The position numbers and the translations under genes were made by a program. A DNA stretch of 64,000 nucleotides, from the NCBI GenBank assembly GCA_964411385.1, contig CAYPKT010000003.1:137302-201301 (forward strand), read 5' to 3'. The notes beneath the pieces were generated by a model. That model worked only from the letters and a program-made list of their open reading frames with translations, had not been told where the DNA came from and did not search any database. Each line of letters starts with the position of its first letter. The stretch's first letter is position 1. Source of the DNA: an uncultured Candidatus Brevefilum sp. (lineage in GTDB: Bacteria; Chloroflexota; Anaerolineae; Anaerolineales; Anaerolineaceae). Below are positions 40,177-63,208 of the stretch, piece after piece.

Positions 40177-40236
40177 CTGAAAACAATTAAAAATAATCCT
40201 CGATATGCGTATAAGAGCCTTATTGTTTATTAAACT

Positions 40237-47700: not shown

Positions 47701-48280
47701 AGTTGGGGGCCCATTGAAAGGGGTAGACCCCGATACTGACCAAGCGTTGTTTGCGCAGGGTGCCGTCGTTGACCACCTCGGCAAACTGGCCGGGGTAGGG
47801 GACGTCTGCACGGTAAACAGATGGGTCTTGTTCGTAGATGGTTGTAATCTCCTTCGGAATGGGTAACCCGTCGTTGAGCTCCGGATCTTCCCAGGTTACC
47901 ACCTCACGGCTTTGGGGGAGGATGGGTGCATCTAACTTGATGGTATGGGCTTTTCCGGGGCTAACATGGAGGTCAATGGACGCACCGAACGGGGCGCCGA
48001 TCGCCTGGGTAAAGAAGGGCAGCTGGGGTGCACCTGGATCGCCTGAAGTCGGCCACCCCGGTAACAAAATTTGCGTATAATCCCCTGAGTTTGTCGATAA
48101 CAATTCTTGGATCACCCGGTCGGCAGGAACGTTGAGTGTAAAACTTAACCCATAGCTATCGCTTGAATGCAGTGTGATCTCACCCTCATCAACCACGGCG
48201 CTAACAGCACTGCCGGGCGATGGTGTTATAAGGGTGATCAAAATACCTGTAGTGAGGAGAATGTTGATTATTTTTTTCAT
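44723..48280 (-). CDS. Secreted gingipain-like (peptidase C25 family) protein with two C-terminal cadherin/Ig-like modules and a short hydrophobic tail
   Basis: Signal peptide and a propeptide-like N-terminus. Catalytic-type motifs FVNYFGHGYYGGWG (His) and LLSFTCQDGYY (Cys). Two repeats of the type VLNNDTN...YTPNDGFYGVDSFTYSISDG. The tail is ITGFGIFLPLFISGPNK. Confidence 0.72.
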   Translation of the reverse strand: MKKIINILLTTGILITLITPSPGSAVSAVVDEGEITLHSSDSYGLSFTLNVPADRVIQELLSTNSGDYTQILLPGWPTSGDPGAPQLPFFTQAIGAPFGASIDLHVSPGKAHTIKLDAPILPQSREVVTWEDPELNDGLPIPKEITTIYEQDPSVYRADVPYPGQFAEVVNDGTLRKQRLVSIGVYPFQWAPNLNELTIYEDIYVEVSFSGASSQLQRSYEPDSSIYESIFQSSLLNYDVAKSWRGLNSSLERGIAEQRSLHWSLPDPAWKISIQEDGFYHLTAGQLVDAGVPIDSLNPDTLQLFHLGEEVAIIVNPDKSILFYGQSIDNKYTKDNIYWLTYGKTSGLRIGARDGTLEGSSPVPSSFVNTYHIEKNTYYVSSGAPGEYEHFFSEWVSPDRNWDLSFTLQNRQSEIVHLRVLLMGITQDISVNPDHHAVLFINGVQIEDNIRWDGVNFHLAEVDIPQGVLVAGENTLTIQEHADNGITIDTFYIDWVEFNYDRSFEIVGDELAFNFHQAGTWQYKLEGFTSGDAEIYDISNPHQPVQIQNFDIQEVGPAFTVSFEDEIIGTVHYWSGTPATFRSIEGITLDKPSNLSAISNRADYLIISHADFLEQAEVLRQYRQGSGLDTVLVDIQDIYDEFGYGITDVLALQNFLAYTLESWAEPAPSYVLLVGDGHYDPKNYLNWGKPSFILPFLANVDPNIGETAADNRYVSLSTESTLPNMLLGRLAVNTPEEAAAFIAKIIAYETNPPLGDWQHHLLAVTDYDSSPSSNYAAMLNAILNQLYPAQPYSLEKMYWKKNHSDLDQATATIKDGFNQGSLFVNYFGHGYYGGWGKNPVFFKTDHINSLAPDNEKLSILLSFTCQDGYYIWPHQLTTRDSLAEVITRTPGKGAAASWSPTGWGTNRGHERLNYGFLESVFVHGSPKLGTAIQNSLLTLWNSGRDLDQIDTYLLFGDPAMRIALSLTAVNDHYSILEDTELIVPVETGVLNNDTNPNKAALTTSLAANVQYGTLDLSSDGSFNYTPNDGFYGVDSFTYSISDGTKTSNIATVTLEVISKNRPIAHDQDLSTRMEVPINITLTADSSNMLLRSSNNLFNNPDDTEFTFTIVDEPIYGLLSGEQGSPERVYTPTGNYIGTDSFTFIANDGSLDSNLAKVTIEIIPKENATITGFGIFLPLFISGPNK

Positions 48281-49281: not shown

Positions 49282-49467
49282 TTACGGGTGTGCACCTTCA
49301 GGACAGCCAACATGTTGATCATAACAAGCAATAGTCCATCCAGATGAGCCGGGAATTTCTTCTGCGGGGTATAAATTTGGGCTGGTATGGCAAACACCTA
49401 AGATAGCGCTTTTATAGGCAAGCTCTACTTTTTTAACGGTTGGCGCTGTGTATGGCTTTTTATTCAT
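49282..49467 (-). CDS. Candidate RiPP precursor peptide (61 aa, 3 Cys)
   Basis: MNKKPYTAPTVKKVELAYKSAILGVCHTSPNLYPAEEIPGSSGWTIACYDQHVGCPEGAHP. SD AGGAGA lies 9 nt upstream of the ATG at 49467. This start overlaps the stop of the radical SAM gene by 8 nt. Confidence 0.6.
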   Translation of the reverse strand: MNKKPYTAPTVKKVELAYKSAILGVCHTSPNLYPAEEIPGSSGWTIACYDQHVGCPEGAHP

Positions 49468-50572
49468 GGCTATGGATCTCCTTTGAAACATTCATTATGT
49501 TAATAATATCATATTCTGTATTTTTTGCCAATTGGCAAACATAATCGACAATGCTTTCATTATCGCCGTAAACCAATTGCGAGAACCCTGGGCATTGAGC
49601 ACATAACCCCGAAGCGGTGCAGGTTAAACAGGATGAAGGTTGTGTGCGTAATCTTTTAGGTTCAAGCCCCAGTTTTTTCCAGGCAGCGTCAAAGCCTGTG
49701 GTTAATACATCGTAAGACGTTTGACGTGCCATCATGCATAAATTAATGCGTCCGGCACTGTCAATATGAAATGATCGAAACCCAGCACCGCAATGGTAGA
49801 TGCGCTCATCTCTTAAGGTCAGCCCATTTGTATTTTCAAAGGTTTGAATCCAACCCTCCATACGCTTTGGGTCACGATGATTAAGTTTCAGCATGTCATC
49901 GATAGAAAGGCGGTAATTAAAATTGTCGTTGTTCCCATCGAGCCGGGGCCAGATGGTGCCATCATAATGTAATTCAACCCCGTAACTATCAGCGAGAGCG
50001 ACCATGTTTTGTAAGTCATGCTTATTTAGGCTGATCACCACCGATTTAAGGACGAATTTAATCCCACTGCTGGCGATTAAATCCAACCCAGCGGTAAAAC
50101 GTCTAAAAGAACCTGGAATGCGGGTGACAGCTTCATAAGTTTCTTCTGTTCCACCATACATGGTGACCTCAATTTGGGAAGGTGGGGCATCTAACAGCAT
50201 GTCTATGATCTTTGGCGTCATCATGGTGGCGTTCGTGAACAAGGTGATGATCAAGCCTTTTTTGCGGGCATACTGGTAAATTTCAGAAAAATCGGGGCGC
50301 AGCAGAGGTTCACCGCCGGTTATCAACAGGAACAGGGTGCCGGCTGCAGCAATTTGGTCGAAAATCGATTTAACTTGCGGGGTTGTCATTTCAGCCGCAA
50401 TCGCTTCAAGGCTGCCAGGCGGCTGGTTGATATAACAATGGACGCAGTTTAAATTGCAGCGGCTGGTGAGGTCAATACTGCCGCTGAGCGGGAATCGAGC
50501 ATCACCGATCGGCTTGTAAAATTGCTCCCACCAGGTAGCATTGTCAATTTCAGGGATGTTTAAACAATCCAT
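49460..50572 (-). CDS. Radical SAM enzyme with a C-terminal SPASM-like auxiliary cluster domain
   Basis: CNLNCVHCY (CxxxCxxC), GGEPLL, and a Cys-rich C-terminus (CGAGF...LCMM...CLTCTASGLCAQCPG). The start is either the ATG at 50572 or the GTG at 50617; the latter would overlap the PqqD gene by 38 nt. Confidence 0.85.
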   Translation of the reverse strand: MDCLNIPEIDNATWWEQFYKPIGDARFPLSGSIDLTSRCNLNCVHCYINQPPGSLEAIAAEMTTPQVKSIFDQIAAAGTLFLLITGGEPLLRPDFSEIYQYARKKGLIITLFTNATMMTPKIIDMLLDAPPSQIEVTMYGGTEETYEAVTRIPGSFRRFTAGLDLIASSGIKFVLKSVVISLNKHDLQNMVALADSYGVELHYDGTIWPRLDGNNDNFNYRLSIDDMLKLNHRDPKRMEGWIQTFENTNGLTLRDERIYHCGAGFRSFHIDSAGRINLCMMARQTSYDVLTTGFDAAWKKLGLEPKRLRTQPSSCLTCTASGLCAQCPGFSQLVYGDNESIVDYVCQLAKNTEYDIINIMNVSKEIHSHE

Positions 50573-50879: not shown

Positions 50880-51428
50880 CTAAGATAAGTATTTACAAAA
50901 ACCTGGTACACATTTTAAAGGACGGTTGGTTAACCTAAGGTGATTATAACGGTTGAGTTGATGTCTGAGGCTGAAAACCATCCACAGAGAAAGCAACCGC
51001 ATGGATGAACGACTCATGCTGAAGTGTTCGCCAGTGCGCTCAAAAGACGCTAAGCGTCCATAAATAGCCTCAAGTGAAATCCATCCGTCAGCTTGAATAG
51101 AATTGTCAGCTTGCAGGAGAAACCTATGGCCAGATTCGTGTTGGCGTATTCGAATCACCCGATGAAGGACCATGCGGCCATGTTTATCAGCGAAGAAAAC
51201 CACATCACCAACCCGGATTGGGCCACCTGCAAGTGGAGTAATTAACAACATATCTCCCTGCCTAATGATCGGGACCATACTGTCCCCCGTGGCAAGCAGC
51301 CTGACAGCTTTACCGGAACGCAAACCCTCCTGGCATAAGTATGTGAAAACGTCAGGCGAGGGGGAGAACTTCTCTAGTAGAAATGGTTGGTTTGGGTTAC
51401 CTGGTCGAGTAGAAGGCATAACAATCAC
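50880..51428 (-). CDS. S26B (Sec11/SipW-type, Ser-His) signal-peptidase-like protein lacking an N-terminal TM helix
   Basis: ATGDSMVPIIRQGDMLLI, VGDVVFF, MVLHRVI and LLQADNS parallel the SGSMEP / GD / THRI / GDNN boxes of SipW-type enzymes. The start is either the GTG at 51428 or the ATG at 51419. Confidence 0.65.
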   Translation of the reverse strand: MIVMPSTRPGNPNQPFLLEKFSPSPDVFTYLCQEGLRSGKAVRLLATGDSMVPIIRQGDMLLITPLAGGPIRVGDVVFFADKHGRMVLHRVIRIRQHESGHRFLLQADNSIQADGWISLEAIYGRLASFERTGEHFSMSRSSMRLLSLWMVFSLRHQLNRYNHLRLTNRPLKCVPGFCKYLS

Positions 51429-51463
51429 AATACCGTGGAGAATTAATCACTTGAATAGGAAGT

Positions 51464-51496
51464 CTGCTGCGACGATTATAATTTTCATCGCAGCAG
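51464..51496 (-). other. Conserved stem-loop 15 nt after the secreted-protein stop codon (copy A)
   Basis: CTGCTGCGA / TCGCAGCAG, a 9-bp stem with a 15-nt loop. There is no U-tract on either strand. Confidence 0.55.
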
Positions 51497-51511
51497 GTGG
51501 TATCCTGTGAT

Positions 51512-52720
51512 CTAAGGTCGAGCTGCGGAGACCGGGCCAAACAATTCAGGCGTGTAGCTGGTATCGGAGGGAACGTCCTCGATCCAGTAGAAATAGGTCA
51601 GGCCGAGCTCAGCTGTGGTATCGAGGTAAGCGTAGTTGGCGCCGAAGGGGTTACCAGGGTTCGAATCGCCGACAATGATTTTACCGTTGATTTTTTCCTT
51701 AACACCGAACTCCATCTCAGAGCGATAAACGTTGAAGCCCAGGTGGTTGACTTCGGTAGCGGTGACCCAATTAAGTTGAATCCCGCCAGAGACGCCTTCA
51801 GCCTGGAGGTCGAGCATAATCACCGGGGTGATATCTTCGTTAGTGATGGCAGCGTATACACAATAGCAGTTATTTGTTTGCTCGGCAGTATACACCAGGT
51901 TATTTGAAAAGTCGGTCCCAATTGGAACGGTTGAGGGGCATTGCCCTGACGCAGGCTTATCGATAAAACCCAACAGGGAGACGGTGTATTCCCGTTCGAC
52001 TGGGTCGCCAGGCGTAGTGATGTTATCTACACATGTAAAATATTGTGTGTCACCTGGTTTGGTAATATTGACCCTGTCTGCACAGCCATTGCGGTTGGGA
52101 CCAGTATCTCCAGATACGTTTGGATAAGCTGAGCCACCCGGCCAATTGGGAGAGCTTGGGCCATATCTGCAAGGACTTTGGTTGTTCGTCGTCTCATCCA
52201 GGTTAAAGGTATAGACGAAATCCATCGTAGTTGGAGCATCCACCACATATGGTAGGTCACAAGCTAAACCGCTGATTGTAGCGGTGAGATCTACATACTC
52301 AAATGGATTATTGGGTGTAGAAATCGGGTTGTTAAAATGACAAAACGTGCCCACGTTAAAGGGAGTATTCAACGCGGGAGCATCGCCGATCCCTGTGCGT
52401 CCGAGGAAACCAAAACCACTTTTATTGCCAAAGGTATCTGATGAACCATAGCGTACCTGGTTCCAGTCAAAAGTTACGCGATTTTGAGTGTAAAGGTGAT
52501 TATTAGATCCGGAGGTAGAAGTAGTTTTGTAAGTCGGGTTGTCGTAATCATTTGAAGTAGCAGCTGGCCCGGTTGCCCACGTATTTCCGGTGGCTCCTCC
52601 GCCGCTATCAATTAACCCCCACACGCCATCCACACTGTTCATCGTAAAGGCTTGGACGACGCCTGTCAAGGTCAACGCTGCCATTAGCAGGCCAAAAATT
52701 AAAAGTATTTTCTTTTTCAT
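51512..52720 (-). CDS. Secreted Cys-rich protein, FCHFNN (THxN / choice-of-anchor-K-like) N-domain plus FN3-like C-domain, paralog A
   Basis: Signal peptide MKKKILLIFGLLMAALTLTGVVQA|FT. Motifs NQVRYGS...GFGFLG...GDAPALNTPFNVGTFCHFNNPI, and C-terminal LNWVTATEVNHLGFNVYR...YFYWIEDV. The ATG at 52720 has a 6-nt spacer from GGAG; an alternative ATG is at 52726. Confidence 0.75.
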   Translation of the reverse strand: MKKKILLIFGLLMAALTLTGVVQAFTMNSVDGVWGLIDSGGGATGNTWATGPAATSNDYDNPTYKTTSTSGSNNHLYTQNRVTFDWNQVRYGSSDTFGNKSGFGFLGRTGIGDAPALNTPFNVGTFCHFNNPISTPNNPFEYVDLTATISGLACDLPYVVDAPTTMDFVYTFNLDETTNNQSPCRYGPSSPNWPGGSAYPNVSGDTGPNRNGCADRVNITKPGDTQYFTCVDNITTPGDPVEREYTVSLLGFIDKPASGQCPSTVPIGTDFSNNLVYTAEQTNNCYCVYAAITNEDITPVIMLDLQAEGVSGGIQLNWVTATEVNHLGFNVYRSEMEFGVKEKINGKIIVGDSNPGNPFGANYAYLDTTAELGLTYFYWIEDVPSDTSYTPELFGPVSAARP

Positions 52721-53005
52721 CACCATCTCCTTAATTTAATTATCATAAATTGATAAATATTTCCCTTGTTTTAATAATTTACCCATCTTAAAAATTTGCT
52801 CTTTTGAGCTGAACTTATTAAAGTATAACGAAATAAAAAATAATTGTCAATATTTATTTTCTATTTTAAACGGTTTTCCTAATTTAAAAACAAATATCAT
52901 TAAATTACATTAAGAAAGTTTTGAAATAAATTTAAATACATGAATAACACAAATTGATTGCGACCCCTACAGCGGTGGTTTTGCGGTGCTCCTTAAGATA
53001 TCCTG

Positions 53006-53800
53006 TTACCTGATGGGTAATATGACGCAAGGATCGGGCTTTCCCGTTTCAGCTTGTGCACCGCAAAACCCAAAGTATTCATCACGGCTACCGCCAAATT
53101 GATTAGTGTTGATAAACTCCCACATAAAGGTGCCGCTGGTGTATGGTGTGGTCCAATTGCCTTGAGCACTTAATTCATCATAATAAGTTGTCGTAAATTC
53201 GTATTGGACACCACCTATTTTTCCGACCCCGATCAATTGAGAGGCGTTATTTGTAATTTTAACTTCACCTATCTTGAAAGTTCCATCAGGATCCTGAAAC
53301 CACACTGCCCAATCCCCGATCCAGAGTGTTTGTGGCGTGGCAGTTGGTTTAGGTGGGGGTGTGGAGGTTGGCTTCAACCCCGCAGGCTTGCTTTGGGTAG
53401 GGTCAGGTAAACTTGGCTGGGTGGAGGTGGGCACGCTGGTGGATGTTCTGCCAGGGTTGCCAGGCAGAGTTGTTGAACCAGCCTGGGGGGGCAAACCGGT
53501 CAGGTTGGGCGTAAAATTTACGTCTGGATGGGCACTCGTCGGGTTGAAACCGGAGCTTGAGTGATCAGCCCCAGGCGAACTTGCGTCCTCAGTTGGGCGG
53601 ACGGGTGCAAAAGGATCTAGCCCTACAAAGAACGAGGTCGGGGTTGGGCTGGGTTGCACCTCAGAATGGGTGGCGACTGCCCAGTCACCAGTGAAACCCT
53701 GGTTTGTTATCGATTTATTTTCAGCGCGGACATACCAAACGGTGGAGGCGATCAACGTTATGGTTAAGATGCTCAATAAGGTTATTGAATTTCGTCTCAT
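53006..53800 (-). CDS. Membrane-anchored protein with a Pro/Thr/Ser-rich linker and a conserved C-terminal globular domain, paralog A
   Basis: N-terminal TM helix ITLLSILTITLIASTVWYV, a low-complexity PT-rich segment, and C-terminus WIGDWAVWFQDPDGTF...FGFCGAQAETGKPDPCVILP. Paralog of 55832-56626. Confidence 0.7.
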   Translation of the reverse strand: MRRNSITLLSILTITLIASTVWYVRAENKSITNQGFTGDWAVATHSEVQPSPTPTSFFVGLDPFAPVRPTEDASSPGADHSSSGFNPTSAHPDVNFTPNLTGLPPQAGSTTLPGNPGRTSTSVPTSTQPSLPDPTQSKPAGLKPTSTPPPKPTATPQTLWIGDWAVWFQDPDGTFKIGEVKITNNASQLIGVGKIGGVQYEFTTTYYDELSAQGNWTTPYTSGTFMWEFINTNQFGGSRDEYFGFCGAQAETGKPDPCVILPIR

Positions 53801-53830
53801 AATAATTTAATTATAAGCGCTTTAGCTAAA

Positions 53831-53972
53831 AGAGAATAGTGAGTGGTGAATAGGAATTAGGGAATAGGAAGTAGGGATTAGGAAGGAGGAAGTAGGAAAT
53901 AGAGAATAGGAAATAGGAATTGGGAATTAGGGATTAGAGATTAGGAAGGAGGAAGTAGGGATTAGGGATTAG
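53831..53972. repeat. Heptanucleotide tandem array GRAWTAG, about 19 units (array A)
   Basis: Read by eye: tgaatag gaattag ggaatag gaagtag ggattag gaaggag gaagtag gaaatag ... ggattag ggattag. Confidence 0.9.
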
Positions 53973-54046
53973 ATCAGACTGTCATCTTTAGGTCGATTTT
54001 CATCAAAGGGGTAGTACCAGATGATGTAGGCGATCAACCCGAGCAG
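53969..54046 (-). pseudogene. 3'-terminal relic of a VanZ-like gene (duplication junction)
   Basis: 78 nt nearly identical to 56830-56907, the last ~25 codons plus stop of the intact VanZ-like gene. Similarity stops abruptly after GAGCAG. Confidence 0.8.
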
Positions 54047-54061
54047 ATCGCTTAACTCGCG

Positions 54062-54148
54062 TTACCAAAGCTCAAAAACTTCAGGCGAAGGTGCGGGTTT
54101 CATTGCAATAAGGGGCTGAGATGGGTTACTTGGTTGGTTAGAAGGCAT
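54062..54148 (-). pseudogene. 5'-terminal relic of the S26B-like peptidase gene (duplication junction)
   Basis: Encodes MPSNQPSNPSQPLIAMKPAPSPEVFELW*, versus MPSTRPGNPNQPFLLEKFSPSPDVFTYL of the intact gene. The upstream leader is also homologous to 51420-51511. Confidence 0.75.
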
Positions 54149-54193
54149 GATGGTCACGATGCTATGGTGAAATAATCCCATGTTGAGGGCAAC

Positions 54194-54226
54194 CTGCTGC
54201 GATAATCATTACGATCATCGCAGCAG
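54194..54226 (-). other. Conserved stem-loop after the secreted-protein stop codon (copy B)
   Basis: CTGCTGCGAT / ATCGCAGCAG, a 10-bp stem. The loop sequence differs from copy A. Confidence 0.55.
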
Positions 54227-54241
54227 TTGGTATCCTGTGAT

Positions 54242-55540
54242 CTAAGGTCGAGCTACGGAGACCGGGCCAAACAACTCAGGCGTGTAGCTGGTGTCGGAGG
54301 GAACGTCCTCCACCCAGTAGAAATAGGTTACGCCGGGTTCAGCTGTGGTATCGAGGTAAGCATAGTTGGCACCGAAGGGGTTACCGGGGTTTGAATCGCC
54401 AACAACGATTTTATTGTTGATTTTTTCCTTGACACCGAACTCCATCTCAGAGCGGTAAACGTTGAAGCCCAGATGGTTGACTTCGGTGGCGGTGACCCAG
54501 GTAAGTTGAATACCCGTTGAGACGCCCTCAGCAGCGAAGTCGAGCATAACCACCGGGGTGATATCTTCTTTAGTGATAGCAGCGTATGCACAATAGCAGT
54601 TATTGGTTTGTTCGGCGGTATAAACCAAGTTGTTTGAAAAGTCGGTTCCAATTGGAACGGCTGCAGGGCATTCCCCTGACGCAGGCTTATTGATAAAGCC
54701 CATCAGGGAGACGGTGTATTCGCGTGTAATTATATTAAGAGGATCGGCGTTATCCACACATGTAAAATATTGTGTGTCACCCGGTTTGGTAATATTGACC
54801 CTATCTGCACAGCCATTGTAATTTAATTGACCAGGGGCAGGCTGAGGGTTATTATAAGCTTCCTGCCCCGACGTGCAATAACTGCCACCATTAGCAGGCC
54901 AATTCGTGGATGAAGGCCCAAATGGACAGGCATGATAAACAGTGACAAGACTAGTTCTACATTTACAATCTCCTGTGCCCCATTCCCACGGCCAACATAA
55001 ACCTTGATTATTCGACGTCTCGGTCAGATTAAAACGATAATCGAAAGTCATTTCAGCTTGTGATGGGTCTGCCAAGATAAAAGGGTGTTCGCATTCGATA
55101 CCGGTGATTTTAACCTTAAGGTCAACCCAGTCCAAAGGGGCATTAGCACTAATTTCATTGTTGAAATGACAAAACTGGCCCACGTTGAAAGGGATATTCA
55201 ACGCAGGGGCATCGCCGATGTTTTGGTGCCCAAGGAAACCAAAGCCGCTTTTTGAGCCAAAGGTTGATGTTGAACCATAGCGTACCTGGTTCCAGTCATA
55301 TAGGACTTGGTTTTGGGTGGTAATTCGAGCAGCAACACTGTCTGTGGAATGTTGTGGAACATTAAAATCACCTCCAGAGAGAGGCCCACTTGCCCAAATT
55401 TGCCCAGTAGCGCCAGAATCTGTTCCGTTGATTTTATCCCATACACCGTCCACGTTGGCCATAGTAAAAGCCTGGACGACGCCGGTTATGGTTAAGGCGA
55501 GAAAAAATAAACCGAGAATTATAAATACCTTATTCTTCAT
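54242..55540 (-). CDS. Secreted Cys-rich FCHFNN protein, paralog B (carries an extra Cys-rich insertion)
   Basis: Signal peptide MKNKVFIILGLFFLALTITGVVQA|FT and motif FNVGQFCHFNNEI. There is a ~30-aa insertion LCWPWEWGTGDCKCRTSLVTVYHAC. The C-terminal half is close to 90 percent identical to paralog A. An alternative ATG is at 55546. Confidence 0.75.
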   Translation of the reverse strand: MKNKVFIILGLFFLALTITGVVQAFTMANVDGVWDKINGTDSGATGQIWASGPLSGGDFNVPQHSTDSVAARITTQNQVLYDWNQVRYGSTSTFGSKSGFGFLGHQNIGDAPALNIPFNVGQFCHFNNEISANAPLDWVDLKVKITGIECEHPFILADPSQAEMTFDYRFNLTETSNNQGLCWPWEWGTGDCKCRTSLVTVYHACPFGPSSTNWPANGGSYCTSGQEAYNNPQPAPGQLNYNGCADRVNITKPGDTQYFTCVDNADPLNIITREYTVSLMGFINKPASGECPAAVPIGTDFSNNLVYTAEQTNNCYCAYAAITKEDITPVVMLDFAAEGVSTGIQLTWVTATEVNHLGFNVYRSEMEFGVKEKINNKIVVGDSNPGNPFGANYAYLDTTAEPGVTYFYWVEDVPSDTSYTPELFGPVSVARP

Positions 55541-55831
55541 TTCCATCTCCTTAAATTAATCGTTTAAATTGTTCAATAAATATAATTGTTAAATAAGCTC
55601 CCTTTTATTTTGATTTACTAAACTAACCAGCTATTTATTGAGTATAAATGAGAATAATTCTTATGTCAAACATTTTTTGGGCGCAAATCAAAGAAAAATA
55701 TCTGCATTGTTTATCAAGAATATTTCAGGTTAATGCTATAGCGTAAGGGACAAATATCAACTGATGAAAAAAACAAACTATGTATCACTAGGTTAATGGT
55801 TGAACCCTTTGCGAAATTTCTACATATCGTG

Positions 55832-56626
55832 TTATCTTAGCGGTAATATGACGCAAGGGTCAGGCTTTCCAGATTTTTCTCTTGTGCCGCAAAACCCAAA
55901 GTATTCATCGTGGCTTCCGCCAAATTGGTTGGCGTTGATGAACTTCCAACGGAAATAGCCACTGGTAGCGGGTGTAGTCCAATAACCTTCGGCTTTCTCT
56001 TCGTCAAACCCTAAAATATCTAATTCGTATTGAACGCCGCCAATTTTACCAATGCCAATTAATTGAAGTGCATTAAATGTGATCTTTATCTTACCAGCTA
56101 TGAAAGTCTCATCAGGATGTTGGAACCAAACGGTCCACTCTCCTACCCAGGGAGCTTGAGCTATTTTAGTTTGAGTAGGTAGTGGGGTAAGCGTGGAGTA
56201 AGTGCCTGTAGGTTTGTTTTGGGTAGGACCCGGTAAGACCGGCTGGGTGGAGGTGGGCACGCTGGCAGGTGTTTTGCCTGGGTTGCCGGGCTGAGCAGTT
56301 GTGCCAAGTTGGTGGGGCAGGTCAGTCAGGTTGGGCGTAAAATTTACGTCTGGCTGGTCACCTAGCGAGTCAGGAGCGGGGTTTGAAAGATTGTCGCTGG
56401 ACGAACCTGAATCTTGTGTTGGGCGGACGGGTGCAAAGGGGTCTAACCCTGCAAAGAACGAAGTCGGGGTTGGGCTGGGTTCCGCCTGTGAATGGATGGT
56501 GACAGCCCAGTCAACTGTGAAACCCTGTTCGCCCCGTGATTTGTTTTCTGCGTACCCAAACCAAAAAGTGGAGATAATCATTACCGTGGTTAGGATAGTT
56601 AAAAGGATAATGGAGTTGCGTTTCAT
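55832..56626 (-). CDS. Membrane-anchored PT-linker protein, paralog B
   Basis: 264 aa with the same architecture and length as 53006-53800. C-terminus WVGEWTVWFQHPDETF...FGFCGTREKSGKPDPCVILP. Confidence 0.7.
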   Translation of the reverse strand: MKRNSIILLTILTTVMIISTFWFGYAENKSRGEQGFTVDWAVTIHSQAEPSPTPTSFFAGLDPFAPVRPTQDSGSSSDNLSNPAPDSLGDQPDVNFTPNLTDLPHQLGTTAQPGNPGKTPASVPTSTQPVLPGPTQNKPTGTYSTLTPLPTQTKIAQAPWVGEWTVWFQHPDETFIAGKIKITFNALQLIGIGKIGGVQYELDILGFDEEKAEGYWTTPATSGYFRWKFINANQFGGSHDEYFGFCGTREKSGKPDPCVILPLR

Positions 56627-56656
56627 AATAATATAATTACCGATGTTTTAGTGACA

Positions 56657-56833
56657 AGAGAATAGTGAGTGGTGAATGAGAAGTAGGAAATAGGAAGTAG
56701 GAAGTAGGAAATAGGGATTAGGGAATAGGAAATAGGGACTAGGAATTAGGAAGTAGGAAATGGGGATTAGGAAATAGGGATTAGGAAATAGGAAATAGGG
56801 ATTAGGAAGGAGGAAGTAGGAATTAGGGATTAG
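56657..56833. repeat. Heptanucleotide tandem array GRAWTAG, about 24-25 units (array B)
   Basis: gaagtag gaaatag gaagtag gaagtag gaaatag ggattag ggaatag ... gaattag ggattag. The last unit contains the VanZ stop codon. Confidence 0.9.
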
Positions 56834-57264
56834 ATCAGACTGTCATCTTTATGTCGATTTTCATCAAAGGGGTGGTACCAGATGATGTAGGTGATCAACC
56901 CGAGCAGGGCACCCCAGCCCGCCATCAATATGTCGCGGGTGTTGAACCCCCGATCGGGGATCAGGTTCTGGTAAAGCCCATTAACCAAGGCGAAAAGGAC
57001 TGCAAGAACAAAGGCTGCCAGCAGACTCATGGCATTGGATGGTTTGGTCCAGATGGTGGCACGCGCTATGAAAAAGGTAAAACCCATGTAAAGGATCACC
57101 TGGGTAAACATCAGGATAAACTGATCTAATTGGATGTTTAGAAAGCGGATGTTTTCCGCGGTTTCTTTCAGCCCAAACAGGGGGTTAGGATTGCTGGACG
57201 CCAGGAAGATCAACAGCGCCCAGATGATAAGGGGATGCCAGCGTTTACGTAAAAAATGGTTCAT
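56830..57264 (-). CDS. VanZ-like membrane protein
   Basis: 144 aa, 4 TM helices, and C-terminal DRGFNTRDILMAGWGALLG, which is typical of the VanZ-like family. Confidence 0.7.
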   Translation of the reverse strand: MNHFLRKRWHPLIIWALLIFLASSNPNPLFGLKETAENIRFLNIQLDQFILMFTQVILYMGFTFFIARATIWTKPSNAMSLLAAFVLAVLFALVNGLYQNLIPDRGFNTRDILMAGWGALLGLITYIIWYHPFDENRHKDDSLI

Positions 57265-57335
57265 GGTATTAGGGGATTGGGAATTAGGAAATATGAATTA
57301 GGAAATAGGGATTAGGAATTAGGTAATTGGAAAAA
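57265..57335. repeat. Heptanucleotide array of the same family, about 9-10 units (array C)
   Basis: ggtatta ggggatt gggaatt aggaaat atgaatt aggaaat agggatt aggaatt aggtaat. It abuts the VanZ start codon. Confidence 0.8.
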
Positions 57336-57391: not shown

Positions 57392-58519
57392 TTAATTGAA
57401 GATCTCTGCAATAGCTTCGACAACGCAGGTGACCTGGTCTTCAGTCATGGTTGGGTAGAGCGGTAGGGTCACCTGGCGGCGGGCGACGGATTCGGTCAAG
57501 GGCAAGGGAGGGTTATGCCCATAAATTTTGAAACTGGTCACAGGGGGGTAATGCCAGCTAACTTGAATCCCTTTTTCTTTCATGGCGTCCATAAAGTGAC
57601 GCTTATCCGCATCACTGGGCAATAAGACCGGCATGATGTGGTAACTGCTTTGGCCACGTTGCTGTCCAAAGGGCACATTGATTTGGGGCGTTAAGCTGGC
57701 AAATTTCTCGCGATACAGTGCGGTTAGCTGTGCGCGGCGGCGATTGCCTGCCGCCACTTTTTTTAGCTGAACCCGCCCTAAGGCAGAGCGCAATTCGTCA
57801 ATACGGTAGTTGTAACCCAGGTCGACCACGTCGTAGGTGCTGGCGTGCCCTTGGTGGCGGTCCCAGGTGAGGGTGGTCATCCCGTGAGAGCGCAGGATGC
57901 GAATTTTTTCTGCCAATTCATCATCATCGGTAACCAACATGCCGCCTTCCGCGGTGGTCATGTTTTTGTTGGCAAAGAAAGAATAACAGCCAAGCTTTCC
58001 CCAGGAACCTAAGGCACGACCTTCCAATGAGGCGCCAACGGCGTGGGCAGCATCTTCAATCACTGCCAGGTTGTGCTGTTCTGCAATTTCAAGGATGGCT
58101 GGCATGTCACAGGGGTAACCGGCATAGTGCATCACCATGATGGCTTTGGTTTTATTAGTAATGGCTGCCTTAATGGATAGGGGCGAGATATTGAGCCAAT
58201 CCTCGCTTTCGATATCGACAAACACGGGTGTTGCATCGGTATAGCGGATGGTATTGGCACTGGCGACGAAGGTCAGCGCTGGTAGAATGACTTCATCCCC
58301 GACGCCTAATCCAGCGGCTAAGCAAGCTAAATGTAGCGCCGCGGTAGCATTTGTGACAGCAAAGGCATGTTTACAGCCAGCAAAGGTGGCAAATTCAGCT
58401 TCAAACGCCTGGGTGACAGCGCCCATCGAGAGCCAGCCAGAACGAATAACTTCAACGATGGCGGCTTCCTCTTCAGCGTTGAGGTTAAGGTCAGAAAGAG
58501 GGACTTTCCAATTGATCAT
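57392..58519 (-). CDS. DegT/DnrJ/EryC1/StrS-family PLP-dependent sugar aminotransferase
   Basis: 375 aa. Family pattern AVTNATAALHLA...DAAHAVGA...FSFFANKNMTTAEGG. Confidence 0.88.
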   Translation of the reverse strand: MINWKVPLSDLNLNAEEEAAIVEVIRSGWLSMGAVTQAFEAEFATFAGCKHAFAVTNATAALHLACLAAGLGVGDEVILPALTFVASANTIRYTDATPVFVDIESEDWLNISPLSIKAAITNKTKAIMVMHYAGYPCDMPAILEIAEQHNLAVIEDAAHAVGASLEGRALGSWGKLGCYSFFANKNMTTAEGGMLVTDDDELAEKIRILRSHGMTTLTWDRHQGHASTYDVVDLGYNYRIDELRSALGRVQLKKVAAGNRRRAQLTALYREKFASLTPQINVPFGQQRGQSSYHIMPVLLPSDADKRHFMDAMKEKGIQVSWHYPPVTSFKIYGHNPPLPLTESVARRQVTLPLYPTMTEDQVTCVVEAIAEIFN

Positions 58520-58531
58520 TAATGAAATCCT

Positions 58532-59245
58532 TTATGCTTTTGGTAAAAATTGTTCTCGCATTCTTTCGAAATCAAGGTTAGCCTGCGCGTAATCATCCGG
58601 GTTGCCCAAATCCATCCAATAGCCATTGAATGGGTAGCCAACCACGCGTTCTTTGGCTGAAAGCAACTTATGAACGAGGTCTGGAAAATCAAGATAATCG
58701 TCTTTTGGGACGTAGTCCAACACGCGAGGCTCAAAAATGTACATGCCCATGCTCACTTTATAATTCAGGGTGGGTTTTTCTACATAATCCGTGATCGAAA
58801 AATCGTTTTCTGCTTGCTTGATAATGCCCAAGTCAACTTTAAATTCTCGTTCATGCATCGCAATGGTACAAATCGCACCCTGTTGGTGGTGGAAAGTAAC
58901 CAGGTCAGTGATATCCAGTAAGGTTAGCACGTCACCGTTGCACACAAGAAAGGTTTCATCAAGATCAGGTATCAAAGCCAGAGGGCCTGCGGTCCCTAAG
59001 GGTTTAGACTCGAAAGAATAGGTGATATCGAGAGCATATTTTTGTCCGTCTTGAAAGAAAGCCTGCATTAAACCAGCGAGGTGACCTACTGTCAAAACAA
59101 CTTGCTTAATGCCGGCGCGTTTAAGCTGTCTTAGGAGGATTTCGAGAATCGCTTTATCTCCTACAGGCATCATTGGTTTGGGGATGACATAAGTGTAAGG
59201 GGCCAAGCGAGTGCCGCGTCCACCGGCAAGAATAATTGCTTTCAT
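58532..59245 (-). CDS. Sugar-phosphate nucleotidyltransferase
   Basis: N-terminal MKAIILAGGRGTRLAPYTYVIPKPMMPV signature. Confidence 0.85.
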   Translation of the reverse strand: MKAIILAGGRGTRLAPYTYVIPKPMMPVGDKAILEILLRQLKRAGIKQVVLTVGHLAGLMQAFFQDGQKYALDITYSFESKPLGTAGPLALIPDLDETFLVCNGDVLTLLDITDLVTFHHQQGAICTIAMHEREFKVDLGIIKQAENDFSITDYVEKPTLNYKVSMGMYIFEPRVLDYVPKDDYLDFPDLVHKLLSAKERVVGYPFNGYWMDLGNPDDYAQANLDFERMREQFLPKA

Positions 59246-59315
59246 AGGATTTAGCTTTCTAATTGTTTAATAGATTCGTAAACATAAAAATGAATAAGCC
59301 CTAACCCAGAAAAAA

Positions 59316-60308
59316 CTACATTGCGTACTTTCCAATGTGGTACCGATCAAGATGTTGGCGAACCCAGGCGATGGTCTGCTCTAAGCCGGTGCGGAGATCA
59401 ACTTCTGGCTGCCAGTTTAACAAAGTGCGTGCTTTACGGTTATCAGAAAGAAGGCGCATTACCTCGGAATGCTCTGGGCGCAAACGCTTGGGATCAACGC
59501 GTACCTCAACAGACCTGCCGATTAATTCAATCACCAATGCCGCTAATTCAGCGATACTGACCTCTGCGCCGTACCCCAGGTTGATCGTTTCCCCATTGAT
59601 ACCAGGGGTTGCCGCTGCCTTGATGAACCCGTCAACGGTGTCGCTAAGATAGGTGAAATCTCGCTTGGCGTCTAAATTGCCGAGATGAATTTCATCCTGC
59701 GTGAGCGCCTGGGTAATGATAGCAGGGATGACCGCCCGTGCAGATTGACCTGGCCCGTAGGTATTGAAGGGTCGCACGGTTACCGCTTGCAACTCATAGG
59801 AACGGACGTAACTTTCAACGAGCTTATCTGCGCCGATTTTGCTGGCTGAATAGGGAGATTGCCCCTGGAGGGGGTGATTCTCATCGATAGGGACACGAAG
59901 GGCGGTGCCGTACACTTCGCTGGTTGAGGTGTGCACCAGCGCACAGTTGTGTGCCCGGCAAGCTTGCAGAACATTTAGCGTGCCAATCAGGTTGCTTTCT
60001 ACAACTTCAACAGGGTGAAGGTATGAATAGGGAATTGAAATCAACGCTCCCAGGTGAAAAATTAAATCAGTTTTGGTTGCCGCCTGTGAGATTGCATCAT
60101 CATCACGCAAATCGCCGGCGATGATTTCGACCCTATTAAGAGTCTCTTCTGGCAATGATCGCAGCAAGCCAATATCGTCGCGGGAATTATAACGCACAAA
60201 GGCTCTCACATTTGCGCCAATGGCAGTTAATCTTTCGACAAGACTGGTTCCAATAAATCCGCCGGCACCGGTGACAAGGATATTTTTGTGTTGCAGGCTA
60301 TGAGACAT
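59316..60308 (-). CDS. NAD-dependent NDP-sugar epimerase/dehydratase (extended SDR)
   Basis: ILVTGAGGFIG Rossmann motif and catalytic YSASK. Confidence 0.85.
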   Translation of the reverse strand: MSHSLQHKNILVTGAGGFIGTSLVERLTAIGANVRAFVRYNSRDDIGLLRSLPEETLNRVEIIAGDLRDDDAISQAATKTDLIFHLGALISIPYSYLHPVEVVESNLIGTLNVLQACRAHNCALVHTSTSEVYGTALRVPIDENHPLQGQSPYSASKIGADKLVESYVRSYELQAVTVRPFNTYGPGQSARAVIPAIITQALTQDEIHLGNLDAKRDFTYLSDTVDGFIKAAATPGINGETINLGYGAEVSIAELAALVIELIGRSVEVRVDPKRLRPEHSEVMRLLSDNRKARTLLNWQPEVDLRTGLEQTIAWVRQHLDRYHIGKYAM

Positions 60309-61830: not shown

Positions 61831-62028
61831 ATACCTTAATTTGCCCCTGTCAATGGCTTGTTAAAGACCAAACTTATTAATTTAATGGAAGTGATTATAA
61901 CACAAATCAAATTTAAATTTGCTAAGTTGAGAAAATCGATGCTCAAGGGTAATCAATTATGAAGGATATTATTCTGGAAAGCATGTTGATTGTGAATTTT
62001 ACTTCACTCATTGAGATATCGCTCTAAG

Positions 62029-62466
62029 TTAATCGATAGCGAATTTCCTTTTCGTTAAATATTTTGTAATTAAAATTCCAAAAATGGCAGAAAGTGTGTC
62101 GAGCAAAATATCGGATAATGAGGCATGACGCCCAGGCACGAAAGATTGTAGGAGCTCATCCATGCAAGCAAAAATAAATATGATCACTAACGCCTTTGTA
62201 AAGGGATGTTGCGTTAACCCTAGCAATATGCGATAGATGATGCTGCCAAGCAAACCATAAACCAAAAAGTGAAAAGCTTTATACCAGTCAAACAGGGTAA
62301 GAAATGAAAGAAAACCCGTATAGTAGAGCCAATTTTGAATGGGTCTAGCAAATTGTTTGTAGGCGTTGTTAACAATATCTCCGCTGGTAGCGGACATGAA
62401 TAAAACTAGCGCCATTAATAAAATTGCCGAAAGATATTTAATATATGGTTTTGATGTGTTTGACAT
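62029..62466 (-). CDS. VanZ-like membrane protein
   Basis: 145 aa, 4 TM helices, motif ELLQSFVPGRHASLSDILLDTLSAIFG. Confidence 0.65.
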   Translation of the reverse strand: MSNTSKPYIKYLSAILLMALVLFMSATSGDIVNNAYKQFARPIQNWLYYTGFLSFLTLFDWYKAFHFLVYGLLGSIIYRILLGLTQHPFTKALVIIFIFACMDELLQSFVPGRHASLSDILLDTLSAIFGILITKYLTKRKFAID

Positions 62467-62500
62467 GGAAATGTTTTCGTCGCCAGGTTTTTAGGGTTAA

Positions 62501-63208
62501 TCACCTATTCGATTTTGTGATTAATACCAGATAATGAGTGTTAAAAATTTTCAGGAATTCTAAAAACGAGGCAAAGGGCCAGGAAATAGGGACGATTTTT
62601 CGAGCAATGGGTGGCGCCAATGTTATTTTTTTAAAATTAAAGTGACAGCCCGGAAACAATTGCCTGATTTCTTTAGGTTTAATACCCGCTGTTTGAGGGT
62701 TGGTGGGGTTCCACCAAAAATCGTACCAGATGATCAAGCCGGTGGGCTTTAGAATTCGCAACATATCAGCTGCCATCTTGTGTTTAACCAAAGGGTCGAG
62801 AACTGAAGTAAACGCGGTGTATTGTAATAAGAGATCGAAACAATCGCCAGGGAAGGGCAAGCACTGACCGTCTGCATTGGTGAATGATGAGCCGATAAGG
62901 CGGGCGTGGGCTTCGCGTAGGCGATTATGAAGTAGGTCGATGCCAAATAAATTGTCGGGTTTAGCGCCATAACGCAGAAAATCACAAAGGACGCCGCCGC
63001 TGCCACAGCCAATTTCGAGGGTTTTTAGCCGATCGAGATGGGTGATTCCTATTGCTGAAAGGAGTTTGATGAGCTGGCGTTCTCGCTGCTGAATGGCGAA
63101 TAGGTTAGCGCGATTGAAATGCGAGTAAAGATGAGATCCATGCAGGCGATTCTCGCGGGTTTTGTATTCATCACGTAAGCGTATGATGTCTTTGTTTGAA
63201 TTGTTCAT
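62501..63208 (-). CDS. Class I SAM-dependent methyltransferase
   Basis: Motif I LEIGCGSGG and the downstream FDLLLQY motif. Confidence 0.8.
   Translation of the reverse strand: MNNSNKDIIRLRDEYKTRENRLHGSHLYSHFNRANLFAIQQRERQLIKLLSAIGITHLDRLKTLEIGCGSGGVLCDFLRYGAKPDNLFGIDLLHNRLREAHARLIGSSFTNADGQCLPFPGDCFDLLLQYTAFTSVLDPLVKHKMAADMLRILKPTGLIIWYDFWWNPTNPQTAGIKPKEIRQLFPGCHFNFKKITLAPPIARKIVPISWPFASFLEFLKIFNTHYLVLITKSNR

Follow-up and report, generated by a model that had tools for sequence, protein, structure and literature searches.

An old head-to-tail duplication of a two-gene cell-surface module in an uncultured Candidatus Brevefilum, with relics of both flanking genes at the joint

The tufA/tufB pair and the Neisseria opa and pil loci are textbook cases of tandem duplication followed by gene conversion between the paralogues. 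The locus described here, on the minus strand of a 64,000-nt stretch of DNA from an uncultured Candidatus Brevefilum sp. (the window), resembles such concertedly evolving bacterial gene families in its head-to-tail copies, the truncated flanking genes at a novel joint, uneven silent-site divergence, trees of individual segments in which paralogues cluster by genome, and hybrid alleles in the population. It differs from them in having only two copies, in that conversion appears to cover part of the unit, and in the unusually good preservation of both flanking-gene relics. Another parallel is offered by hmw1A/hmw2A of Haemophilus influenzae, whose promoters contain 7-bp repeat arrays (PMC2424069, PMC8262952). 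In both systems, duplicated surface-protein loci are directly preceded by heptamer arrays, with unequal numbers of repeats in the two copies (~17 vs 21 here); however, the present repeats are imperfect (76-82% matches) and showed no length variation among four samples. Slippage is expected to be less frequent in imperfect than in perfect repeats.

A block of ~2.8 kb carrying two cell-surface genes, a secreted-protein gene (K) and its partner (P), was duplicated head to tail long ago at this locus. The first-pass annotation had described 51346-54046 and 54075-56907 as collinear homologous segments, and this was confirmed by a global alignment and by segment-by-segment alignments, in which none of 300 shuffles equaled the observed score for any homologous segment. 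We refer to the upstream unit as copy B and the downstream unit as copy A, both read on the minus strand. In that reading order, the features are as follows.

57280..57333, minus strand: third short heptamer array, ~8 copies (TRF and pattern scan)
56830..57264, minus strand: intact VanZ-family gene, 144 aa (NF037970, 30.5 bits, cut-off 20; Pfam VanZ, 28.7 bits)
56680..56834, minus strand: heptamer array B, ~21 imperfect CCTAWTY copies on the coding strand (TRF period 7, 21.1 copies, 78% matches; pattern scan)
55832..56626, minus strand: P_B, partner gene, 264 aa (ORF; identical to P0003)
55547..55831, minus strand: AT-rich spacer B, 285 nt (GC 0.33; promoter-like TTGACA-17-TATACT at 55669..55641)
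54242..55546, minus strand: K_B, secreted-protein gene, 434 aa (choice-of-anchor K model NF038131, 45.6 bits, above cut-off 30)
54192..54226, minus strand: hairpin B, downstream of K_B (-29.9 kcal/mol, z -4.4)
54074..54191, minus strand: peptidase relic, leader 54191..54149 plus first 25 codons 54148..54074 (0/300 shuffles)
54046..54073, minus strand: junction filler, ~28 nt (homology to either parent gene undetectable)
53969..54046, minus strand: VanZ 3' relic, last 25 codons plus stop (75/78, 96%, identical to 56907..56830, no gaps)
53851..53973, minus strand: heptamer array A, ~17 copies (TRF period 7, 17.4 copies; pattern scan)
53006..53800, minus strand: P_A, partner gene, 264 aa (P0001 100% identical over 94% of query)
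52727..53005, minus strand: AT-rich spacer A, 279 nt (promoter-like TTGACA-17-TATACT at 52850..52822)
51512..52726, minus strand: K_A, secreted-protein gene, 404 aa (NF038131, 37.5 bits, above cut-off 30)
51464..51498, minus strand: hairpin A, downstream of K_A (-27.3 kcal/mol, z -5.2)
50880..51428, minus strand: intact S24/S26-type (SipW/archaeal-like) peptidase gene (Pfam Peptidase_S24, 29.4 bits, cut-off 23.3)

At the joint, a VanZ 3' relic had been reported within ~28 nt of a peptidase 5' relic, and both were verified by tblastn and alignment. VanZ residues 120-144 match 54046..53972 (88% identity, E 4e-10), the source being the last 25 codons of the intact gene (56907..56830); this relic falls in none of the listed ORFs of at least 25 codons, which run from the first ATG, GTG or TTG after a stop. 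The other relic derives from the leader and first ~25 codons of the intact peptidase gene: peptidase residues 1-28 match 54157..54074 (54% identity, E 2e-5), and comparison with 51463..51345 gave 57% nucleotide identity for the leader (hairpin to ATG) and 68% for codons 1-25 (51/75, 54148..54074 vs 51419..51345, no gaps). The relic ORF 54181..54062, which has no Pfam match, ends in a stop codon, and its product terminates in MPSNQPSNPSQPLIAMKPAPSPEVFELW, exactly the peptide that had been written for it. The filler (54073..54046) resembles neither parent, since 145 of 300 shuffles scored as well against the continuation of the peptidase gene and 121 of 300 against VanZ upstream of the breakpoint. 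The two routes proposed earlier, unequal crossover and replication slippage, are indistinguishable because the degraded joint has no detectable microhomology; the single duplication that they share is supported. A head-to-tail duplication between breakpoints inside VanZ (~codon 120) and the peptidase gene (~codon 25-28) accounts for every feature of the locus. Neither the ORF list nor the Pfam search contained a transposase-like ORF, in agreement with the statement that no IS element is involved; no mobile element is present.

The B/A homology spans non-coding DNA and both relics as well as coding DNA, so the duplication survives the objection that similarity might be limited to genes. Single-copy relatives also exist, as had been envisaged: the related loci L006 (DegT-P-K-PqqD...), L007 and L092 (VanZ-P-K-PqqD...) each have the module once, as expected if the ancestral state was single-copy. 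The VanZ C-terminus is homologous to a VanZ-like fragment upstream of P in L092. The duplication is old, because silent sites are saturated across large parts of both gene pairs (pS 0.75-0.86 for the 5' part of K, 0.8-0.9 for the C-terminal domain of P) and the spacers retain only 55% identity.

Among the regulatory segments, array B occupies the interval from the VanZ stop codon to a point 53 nt short of the P_B start codon, and its RNA is predicted to be unstructured. It shares 69% identity with array A (150 vs 118 nt), with a 34-nt alignment gap equivalent to about five heptamers, and the stretch from array end to P start codon is 75% identical. The third array lies upstream of VanZ, outside the duplicated unit, and no heptamer arrays were found in the related loci. 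The spacers are 55% identical, and their promoter-like sequences, each matching the promoter consensus at 11/12 positions, lie at equivalent positions. The interval from K stop to hairpin is 80% identical; hairpin B is not followed by a U tract. The intact peptidase (182 aa from GTG, or 179 aa from ATG 51419) scored 47.8 bits with TIGR02228, under the cut-off of 51.85, and is 98% identical to its orthologue beside a K_A-type gene in L009.

The true K starts are likely 55540 in K_B (432 aa) and 52720 in K_A (402 aa). K_B comprises a signal peptide, a choice-of-anchor K/peptide-binding-domain-like region with FCHFNN, a Cys-rich loop and a Fn3-like C-terminal domain; according to the family alignment, K_A lacks the loop that K_B and most relatives possess. 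A 432-aa cluster representative, P0006, matches K_A at 64% identity and shares one 214,589-bp NCBI contig with P0003. A THxN-type motif is present in both K proteins as CHFN within FCHFNN, but the THxN-family PEP-CTERM model (NF038125) scored them at 39.6 and 32.7 bits, under its cut-off of 85. Unlike PEP-CTERM proteins, they have no PEP-CTERM or other hydrophobic sorting tail and end instead in the Fn3-like domain and a conserved GPVSA-R tail. Structural comparison pointed to the peptide-binding domains of RTX adhesins, represented by Marinomonas primoryensis MpIBP (PDB 5k8g/6x5v) and Vibrio cholerae FrhA (PDB 9y9w) (PMC10523503). These were the top Foldseek matches of the K_B AF2 model (pLDDT 89; E about 1e-8); differences elsewhere in the protein keep the global TM-scores low (0.27-0.36). 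The K-family profile also matched the MpIBP/FrhA chains (E 7e-8 to 1e-7), and QxR(Y/W)G, SG(F/Y)GF, F(C/T)H(F/Y)N(N/Y)P and ETxN are common to both. Whereas those domains are modules of megadalton T1SS adhesins, K stands alone as a small Sec-type secreted protein. Homology and models together suggest that K is a secreted ligand-binding protein whose N-terminal domain is homologous to the RTX-adhesin peptide-binding domain.

P_A and P_B, both of 264 codons, align without gaps at 63% amino-acid identity; the genes are 71% identical in the segment alignment. The indels that the first-pass annotation placed in the partner genes are thus refuted; indels occur only in the N-terminal half of the secreted genes, the spacers and the heptamer arrays. 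P_B consists of an N-terminal hydrophobic segment, a Pro/Thr-rich linker and a C-terminal domain of ~105 aa, modeled by AF2 as an eight-stranded beta-barrel (pLDDT 94) without a Pfam family. P may be a surface-tethered stalk bearing a small beta-barrel. The linker had been named as a strongly diverged part, but at silent sites the C-terminal domain is the most diverged (pS 0.8-0.9 against 0.34-0.45).

The module adjoins a cassette of PqqD, radical SAM-SPASM, small Cys peptide, ScmC-like and PorU-like C25 genes, and the order K-PqqD-rSAM-small peptide-ScmC-C25 is kept in four related loci, suggesting that K and P belong with this cassette. The PqqD-family, radical SAM/SPASM and ScmC-like P-loop neighbors recall SynChlorMet-type cassettes (ScmC/ScmD/ScmE/ScmF), and the best model for the C25 peptidase is the T9SS sortase PorU (C25 family), although all these matches are well below curated cut-offs. 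K itself has no T9SS C-terminal domain; relatives of its last domain precede that domain in Ignavibacteria and Bacteroidota but are not that domain.

The divergence had been called strongly mosaic, and this holds for silent sites themselves. The 3' 579 nt of the K genes are 87% identical, slightly below the nearly 90% over ~600 nt estimated by eye, and the 5' part is, as described, diverged with indels (56%, 126 gap columns). Among codons encoding the same amino acid in K_A and K_B, the fraction that differs drops from 50% before K codon 200 to 18% beyond it (maximum chi-square 31.2, reached in none of 2000 permutations), and a two-breakpoint scan revealed the same contrast; the P pair displayed a non-significant trend (maximum chi-square 4.0, p about 0.38). 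High B/A identity runs beyond the K stop codon into non-coding DNA, and the non-coding VanZ stub is 96% identical vs 68% for the peptidase stub. Trees also disagreed: K_B grouped with L092_K1 in the N-part tree (88% bootstrap), and the C-part tree grouped paralogues by genome (K_A+K_B 69%, L092_K1+K2 94.5%). Hybrids were found in other samples. The L005 P gene is purely A-type over its 5' 205 nt (53 informative sites to 0), passes through a mosaic zone to a purely B-type 3' end and continues into spacer B and the K_B start; the L089 K gene is A-type in its 5' part and B-type over the last ~430 nt; and L009 has a short B-type patch. Because these contigs are short, and coverage of L005 is very low, there is a residual chance that long-range chimeric assembly underlies them. 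Between near-identical strains (neighboring S26 gene dS = 0), K_A is patchily diverged (dS 0 to 0.8). Together, these several independent lines suggest that gene conversion is the best explanation of the mosaic.

Alternative explanations were weighed against this interpretation. That the tandem structure is an assembly artefact is extremely improbable: repeats can in principle mislead assemblers, and no support for this was found here. Depending on the segment, the units share only 55-96% identity, which makes a mis-duplicated single copy impossible, and misassembly does not generate divergence of the kind seen in the relics. Four sequencing runs yielded Logan assemblies that matched the window at 99.96-100% identity, and two of them (11.9 and 7.6 kb, from different sequencing runs) span the whole structure, including the joint, at 100%. 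Also quite unlikely is selection acting without any recombination between copies, in which the K C-terminal half would be under strong purifying selection and the K N-terminal domain and parts of P under a relaxed or diversifying regime. The diverged parts are indeed the predicted ligand-binding domain and barrel, the K N-part exceeds the C-part in dN by a factor of three to ten, and one K_A vs L089 window gave a dN/dS of 2.0 (codons 62-102; Sd 2.2, Nd 14.8). However, protein-level selection fails to explain a nearly threefold contrast in silent divergence at unchanged amino acids, and the identity reaching into non-coding DNA and a non-coding relic, the discordant trees and the hybrids likewise stand against it. 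Every 40-codon window between paralogues gave a dN/dS of 0.08-0.65 wherever dS was finite, and none exceeded 1; thus, of the two causes offered earlier for the mosaic, gene conversion is favored and diversifying selection is not.

A less improbable, though still unlikely, alternative is that the second unit had diverged before the joint arose, so that the mosaic reflects allele divergence between strains. Homologous DNA from another strain might have integrated beside the resident copy by Campbell-type or unequal crossover via conserved arms, or a core block (P barrel domain - spacer - K N-domain) might later have been replaced by a foreign allele. In its favor, relics and arms look younger (K 3' half dS about 0.3-0.45; peptidase stub ~0.4 substitutions per site) than the core, where silent sites are saturated, and K_B groups with a distant genome's orthologue instead of K_A. 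Moreover, comparison of the near-identical strains reveals imported patches in K_A that are neither A-type nor B-type; therefore, foreign alleles recombine into the locus. A point against the favored account is that the peptidase-stub identity exceeds the neutral expectation for the age implied by saturated silent sites; either conversion reached this stub too at some stage, or the diverged core predates the joint. Conversely, the P_A and P_B C-terminal domains are mutually closest (66% identity vs 44-49% to L092_P) despite the diverged core, the B-type patches in L089 and L009 and the hybrid P of L005 show copy-to-copy exchange directly, and the required extra donor lineage was not observed. 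No one simple history fits both the K N-part tree, which would place the K_A/K_B split at or before the L092-lineage split, and the P identities, in which P_A and P_B are far closer to each other than to L092_P (38-41%).

The comparisons thus establish the ancestral order, the duplication event and its old age, and the full account, in which later gene conversion and the suggested module functions are included, is in our view probable. The ancestral minus-strand order was VanZ - heptamer array - P - spacer - K - hairpin - S26-type peptidase. A single event of illegitimate or unequal recombination, or of slippage, duplicated the ~2.8-kb segment between VanZ ~codon 120 and peptidase ~codon 25-28 head to tail without a mobile element; VanZ stayed intact upstream and the peptidase downstream, and the new joint was left with a peptidase-5'/VanZ-3' stub pair. 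Later non-reciprocal recombination between the copies has then probably re-homogenized some tracts. The most recent tract would stretch from the joint, by way of the VanZ stub and array, as far as the conserved 22 nt directly downstream of the array, although the VanZ-stub identity could instead reflect selection on a regulatory element; an older tract of ~615 nt would cover the K 3' half and the first arm of the hairpin. The duplication is a clean example of an ordinary process in a module that is itself uncharacterized. Through it the organism acquired two versions, distinguished mainly by the predicted K binding domain, the P barrel and the region of the K promoter, with K C-terminal halves that are nearly alike.

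The ORF listing placed all genes of the duplicated region on the minus strand, where an upstream unit (copy B, 54075-56907) precedes a downstream unit (copy A, 51346-54046). Each unit contains a gene for a secreted FCHFNN protein (K_B or K_A) and a gene for its 264-aa partner (P_B or P_A), and relics of the two flanking genes, hereafter the VanZ stub and the peptidase stub, lie at the joint between the units.

Features of the duplicated region
57264..56830, minus strand: VanZ-family gene, intact
56834..56680, minus strand: heptamer array B, imperfect
56626..55832, minus strand: P_B, partner gene, 264 aa
55831..55547, minus strand: spacer B, AT-rich
55546..54242, minus strand: K_B, secreted-protein gene, 434 aa
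54226..54192, minus strand: hairpin B
54191..54074, minus strand: peptidase relic, leader and first 25 codons
54073..54046, minus strand: filler, 28 nt, unmatched
54046..53969, minus strand: VanZ relic, last 25 codons and stop
53973..53851, minus strand: heptamer array A
53800..53006, minus strand: P_A, 264 aa
53005..52727, minus strand: spacer A
52726..51512, minus strand: K_A, 404 aa
51498..51464, minus strand: hairpin A
51428..50880, minus strand: S24/S26-type peptidase gene, intact

The intact VanZ gene passed the VanZ family model NF037970 (30.5 bits; cut-off, 20). The intact peptidase scored above the cut-off of Pfam Peptidase_S24 (29.4 against 23.3 bits) and below that of the S26B/SipW-type signal peptidase model TIGR02228 (47.8 against 51.85 bits); GDSM and HRV motifs are readable in its sequence. 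Downstream of it lie genes for a PqqD-family protein, a radical SAM/SPASM protein, a small Cys-containing ORF, a ScmC-like P-loop protein and a 1185-aa C25 peptidase. Long antisense ORFs overlapping the K and P genes (51497-51907, 54227-54394 and 56301-56636, plus strand) had no family matches and most likely reflect sense-gene composition. The module has polysaccharide-biosynthesis surroundings (38443-44594 and 57392-63208), in which Pfam and NCBIfam identified a Wzc-like tyrosine autokinase, a DegT aminotransferase, a nucleotidyl transferase, an epimerase and a Bac_transf priming transferase; a second VanZ-family gene is found at 62029-62466. NTP_transf_5-like and LysM-containing neighbours were assigned solely through synteny with the related contig L092, and the corresponding window ORFs had no NCBIfam match (417 aa) or a weak one (306 aa). 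The 517-aa ORF at 29092-30645 contains a 15/30-nt tandem repeat (29283-29379; 6.5 and 3.2 copies) unrelated to the duplication.

We aligned the two units globally and then segment by segment, with 300 shuffles each. Every homologous segment, coding or non-coding, scored above all 300 shuffles, establishing that the units are collinear homologues with the boundaries proposed in the first-pass annotation. The homology is not confined to the coding regions, as the spacers, the hairpin flanks and the relics align too.

Identity between copies B and A by segment
VanZ stub: 96% (75/78, gapless)
Heptamer arrays: 69%, with ~five more heptamers in B
Array end to P start: 75%
P genes: 71%
Spacers: 55%
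K 5' part: 56%, with 126 gap columns
K 3' 579 nt: 87%
K stop to hairpin: 80%
Hairpin to peptidase ATG: 57%
Peptidase codons 1-25, relic against intact gene: 68%, gapless

Both stubs were recovered by tblastn (VanZ 3' stub, E 4e-10; peptidase 5' stub, E 2e-5) and lie 28 nt apart, as had been noticed from the sequence, and the peptide then read from the peptidase relic is also correct. At the joint, the distal end of one unit is thus fused to the proximal end of the other, that is, truncated copies of both flanking genes meet. Alignment against shuffles revealed no resemblance of the 28-nt filler (54073..54046) to either the VanZ or the peptidase parent gene, and no microhomology was detectable at the joint; since none survives there, the joint fits unequal crossover and slippage alike. 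The heptamer arrays were ruled out as the recombination substrate, because the joint lies inside the VanZ coding sequence, 78 nt beyond the array. A mobile element was sought at or near the joint, and no ORF in 50.8-57.3 kb had a transposase match; an IS- or transposon-mediated duplication was therefore dropped, in line with the earlier statement that no IS element is involved. In Logan assemblies, four sequencing runs matched the window with 99.96-100% identity, and two independent assemblies, of 11.9 kb (SRR8925752) and 7.6 kb (SRR8925751), spanned both units and the joint with 100% identity. The units are also too diverged from each other to be an assembler's duplicate. The tandem duplication, with both junction relics preserved, is genuine and old, and its copies later underwent partly concerted evolution.

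Related genomes contain the expected single-copy state. The P-K pair occurs once per locus, at the equivalent position, in three longer related contigs (L006, L007 and L092), which are distant relatives with cassette orthologues 49-72% identical; a further locus, L097, contains K without P.

Gene order in related loci
L006: DegT-P-K-PqqD-rSAM-peptide-ScmC-C25
L007: P-K-peptidase-PqqD-rSAM-peptide-ScmC-C25
L092: VanZ-P-K-PqqD-rSAM-peptide-ScmC-C25, plus a second K 3' of C25
L097: K-PqqD-rSAM-peptide-ScmC-C25, without P

The VanZ-P-K order of L092 is the ancestral order predicted from the relics. K is part of the conserved core, and P is accessory in a subset of loci. Since C25 comes after K-PqqD-rSAM-peptide-ScmC in all four loci, a functional link between C25 and K is suggested. 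The C25 peptidase of the window (44723-48280, minus strand) had the T9SS sortase PorU as its best NCBIfam model, at 249 bits against a cut-off of 420, and also carries tandem-95/cadherin-like repeats and a hydrophobic C-terminus. A small ORF of 53-64 aa that separates the radical SAM/SPASM gene from the ScmC-like one is conserved across four loci (window, 61 aa, 49282-49467, minus strand; L006, 4640-4834; L092, 4172-4351; L007, 4732-4893), with the pattern M.KK.Y.AP.V.KV.L.YK.A.LG.CHSSPN.YP...ACY...CP and three conserved Cys residues. It probably encodes the PqqD/radical SAM pair's precursor peptide; the 69-aa extended form in the window (49282-49491) matched no family model. A literature search for 'SynChlorMet' found no papers.

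We then compared the paralogues in Nei-Gojobori sliding windows. Synonymous divergence (pS) in K was saturated, at 0.75-0.86, both over the first ~80 codons and in the neighbourhood of the indels, and was only 0.26-0.34 across the last 190 codons. In P, it was 0.8-0.9 in the C-terminal domain versus 0.34-0.45 in the linker, so the linker, described at first as much more diverged, is not the most diverged part of P at silent sites; nor do the partner genes carry the indels ascribed to them, as P_A and P_B both have 264 codons and align without gaps. To remove protein-level selection, we considered only codons encoding the same amino acid in both copies. In K, 50% of these differed before codon 200 and 18% after it (maximum chi-square 31.2, reached in 0/2000 permutations), and the P pair alone showed non-significant silent-site heterogeneity (p about 0.38). 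A two-breakpoint scan over P and K gave the same contrast, with the K 3' half against all else as the best partition; because this half alone is separated, the low divergence of the P linker is a trend. A diverged core block running from the P C-domain to the K N-domain was unsupported by the same scan. High A/B identity runs past the K stop codon, and the best-conserved segment overall is the non-coding VanZ stub.

Segment trees (neighbour joining, 200 bootstraps) had moderate support (69-94.5%). In the N-part tree, K_B grouped with the L092 orthologue (88%), and in the C-part tree, the paralogues clustered by genome (69% here and 94.5% in L092). The second K of L092 is dispersed, lying after the C25 gene (K copies at 10001-11341 and 1350-2663); its C-terminal half, unlike its N-terminal half, clusters with the resident L092_K1. 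The K C-terminal half thus seems to have evolved in concert independently in the L092 genome too. Recombinant alleles were found on three contigs, all short and one (L005) of low coverage. In the L005 P gene, the first 205 nt are A-type throughout (53 informative sites to 0); A and B sites then alternate for 100 nt, and everything beyond is B-type only, continuing via the B spacer into K_B, with a few private changes. Such an A5'/B3' hybrid ahead of K_B would be expected either from conversion or from a triplication. The L089 K gene is A-type at its 5' end and B-type over its last ~430 nt, and L009 has a short B-type patch within an A-type K gene that precedes the peptidase gene. The window and L009 represent two strains with dS = 0 in the peptidase gene; their K_A sequences agree fully over codons 41-120 and reach dS 0.26-0.81 over codons 121-228 and 249-308, a patchiness that marks recombination. 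In the same comparison (K_A 51512-52726; L009 95-1288), one diverged patch is neither A-type nor B-type, indicating import from a third allele type.

The first-pass annotation had recognised the mosaic and offered diversifying selection or gene conversion as its cause. Selection of this kind was rejected, as dN/dS was 0.08-0.65 in all paralogue windows with finite dS and the silent sites are themselves heterogeneous. Taken together, the silent sites, non-coding identity, trees and hybrid alleles make conversion between the copies, with some import of other alleles, more likely than selection alone.

The segments conflict in apparent age. The N-part tree points to a separation of the K N-domains no later than the divergence from L092; yet P_A and P_B are clearly sisters (63% identical, against 38-41% for either with the L092 partner L092_P), and the peptidase stub, at ~0.4 substitutions per site, looks younger than the saturated core. 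Conversion may have reached the stubs and arms at intermediate times, or the K N-domains may have evolved fast. That one core block was already diverged when it was imported would agree with the deep split in the N-part tree and fits poorly with the sister relationship of the P genes; we consider it unlikely.

K_A and K_B passed the cut-off of the choice-of-anchor K model NF038131 (37.5 and 45.6 bits; cut-off, 30) and failed that of the THxN PEP-CTERM family NF038125 (39.6 and 32.7 bits; cut-off, 85). A PEP-CTERM sorting tail is absent from K, which ends in ...FGPVSAARP with no hydrophobic tail. Among the choice-of-anchor papers listed, none dealt specifically with choice-of-anchor K. A search of 5.8 billion proteins detected 67 K-family members, one of which, from an Anaerolineaceae bacterium, is labelled a choice-of-anchor K protein by its source. 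A profile of 46 members matched the peptide-binding domains of the RTX adhesins FrhA and MpIBP (hmmsearch E 7e-8 to 1e-7), with the K motif FCHFNN aligned to FTHYNYP, and the same domains were the top Foldseek matches (E about 1e-8) of the K AF2 model (pLDDT 89). The RTX-adhesin domain binds peptides on target cells (PMC10523503). Profile and model thus assign the K domain as homologous to it in fold and motifs, and peptide binding by K is predicted, its ligand being putative. A Cys-rich loop is kept in K_B and most relatives and lost from K_A. The contig gene calls give a K_A product of 402 aa rather than the 404 aa from a longer start, which is the likely reason why an exact database look-up of the longer form found no match.

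The last 100 residues of the K model form an Fn3-like domain. A profile search of genome contigs with the K alignment returned no true K locus, being swamped by distant Fn3-like domains of Ignavibacteria/Bacteroidota. In many proteins of these groups, relatives of the domain lie directly upstream of canonical T9SS type-A C-terminal domains (among contigs L010-L088, for example, L015 10001-10300 and L029 10001-10276; pattern W.TATE.NN.GFE..R ... YRLKQ.D.DG). Scanning metagenome contigs with the K N-domain gave four short contigs with no gene context, and scanning with P motifs gave no match.

P matched no family in Pfam or NCBIfam. A word-indexed search found only three close homologues, and the P domain had 104 cluster representatives among 1.84 billion proteins, mostly of 215-290 aa with the domain C-terminal and, in some, a lipobox. 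The C-terminal 110 residues were modelled as an eight-stranded up-and-down barrel (pLDDT 94) resembling designed mini-barrels, haemophores and the Cap15 barrel (TM about 0.6). On inspection, the hydrophobic N-terminal segment of P_A and P_B could serve as a signal anchor or be cleaved off as a signal peptide, so that membrane anchoring of P is plausible.

Both spacers carry a TTGACA-17-TATACT box at the equivalent position (55669..55641 and 52850..52822), and a separate promoter for each K gene is probable. The hairpins have strong stems (z-scores -4.4 and -5.2); they were rejected as canonical intrinsic terminators, as they lack a following U tract and are absent from the terminator-scan results. 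No known RNA family matched 48-58 kb at E up to 1. The 64 kb contain three heptamer arrays, all in this region, upstream of VanZ, P_B and P_A; the one upstream of VanZ is short (~8 copies, 57280-57333) and lies outside the duplicated unit. The arrays were considered as a putative phase-variable simple-sequence contingency locus: the repeats are imperfect, their RNA is predicted to be unstructured, the paralogue arrays differ in copy number (about 17 versus 21), and the arrays were identical across four samples, with no repeat-number variation. The related loci contained none. Among known systems, the 7-bp repeat array of the Haemophilus influenzae hmw1A/hmw2A promoters comes closest (PMC2424069, PMC8262952).

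P and K might be a cognate anchor-and-adhesin pair in surface display, although as a whole we regard this proposal as quite improbable. The K domain would dock on a conserved C-terminal peptide, such as the invariant ...C-x-ILP-x-R/S tail of the P barrel or the nearby-encoded radical-SAM-modified Cys peptide, and the PorU-like C25 enzyme would take part in display. Duplication would have given two orthogonal pairs, the P barrel and K N-domain diverging together, and conversion would keep the K C-terminal half uniform, since a single processing or anchoring machinery has to accept both copies. The imperfect heptamer arrays before each P gene would tune expression.

Duplication followed by concerted evolution is a well-known process, and only this instance and its uncharacterised module are new; none of these results overturns current understanding. 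The locus is a clean natural record, in which both breakpoint stubs survive, with single-copy relatives and recombinant alleles in other samples, and it could serve as a worked example of how tandem surface-gene duplicates diverge in their binding parts while conversion keeps the rest alike. It also brings to light a recurrent uncharacterised gene set: a stand-alone relative of the RTX-adhesin peptide-binding domain, a stalked mini-barrel without a Pfam family, a radical SAM/PqqD/Cys-peptide/ScmC-like cassette and a PorU-like C25 peptidase. If P and K do act as anchor and adhesin, this set would constitute an undescribed surface-display system in Anaerolineae-type bacteria.
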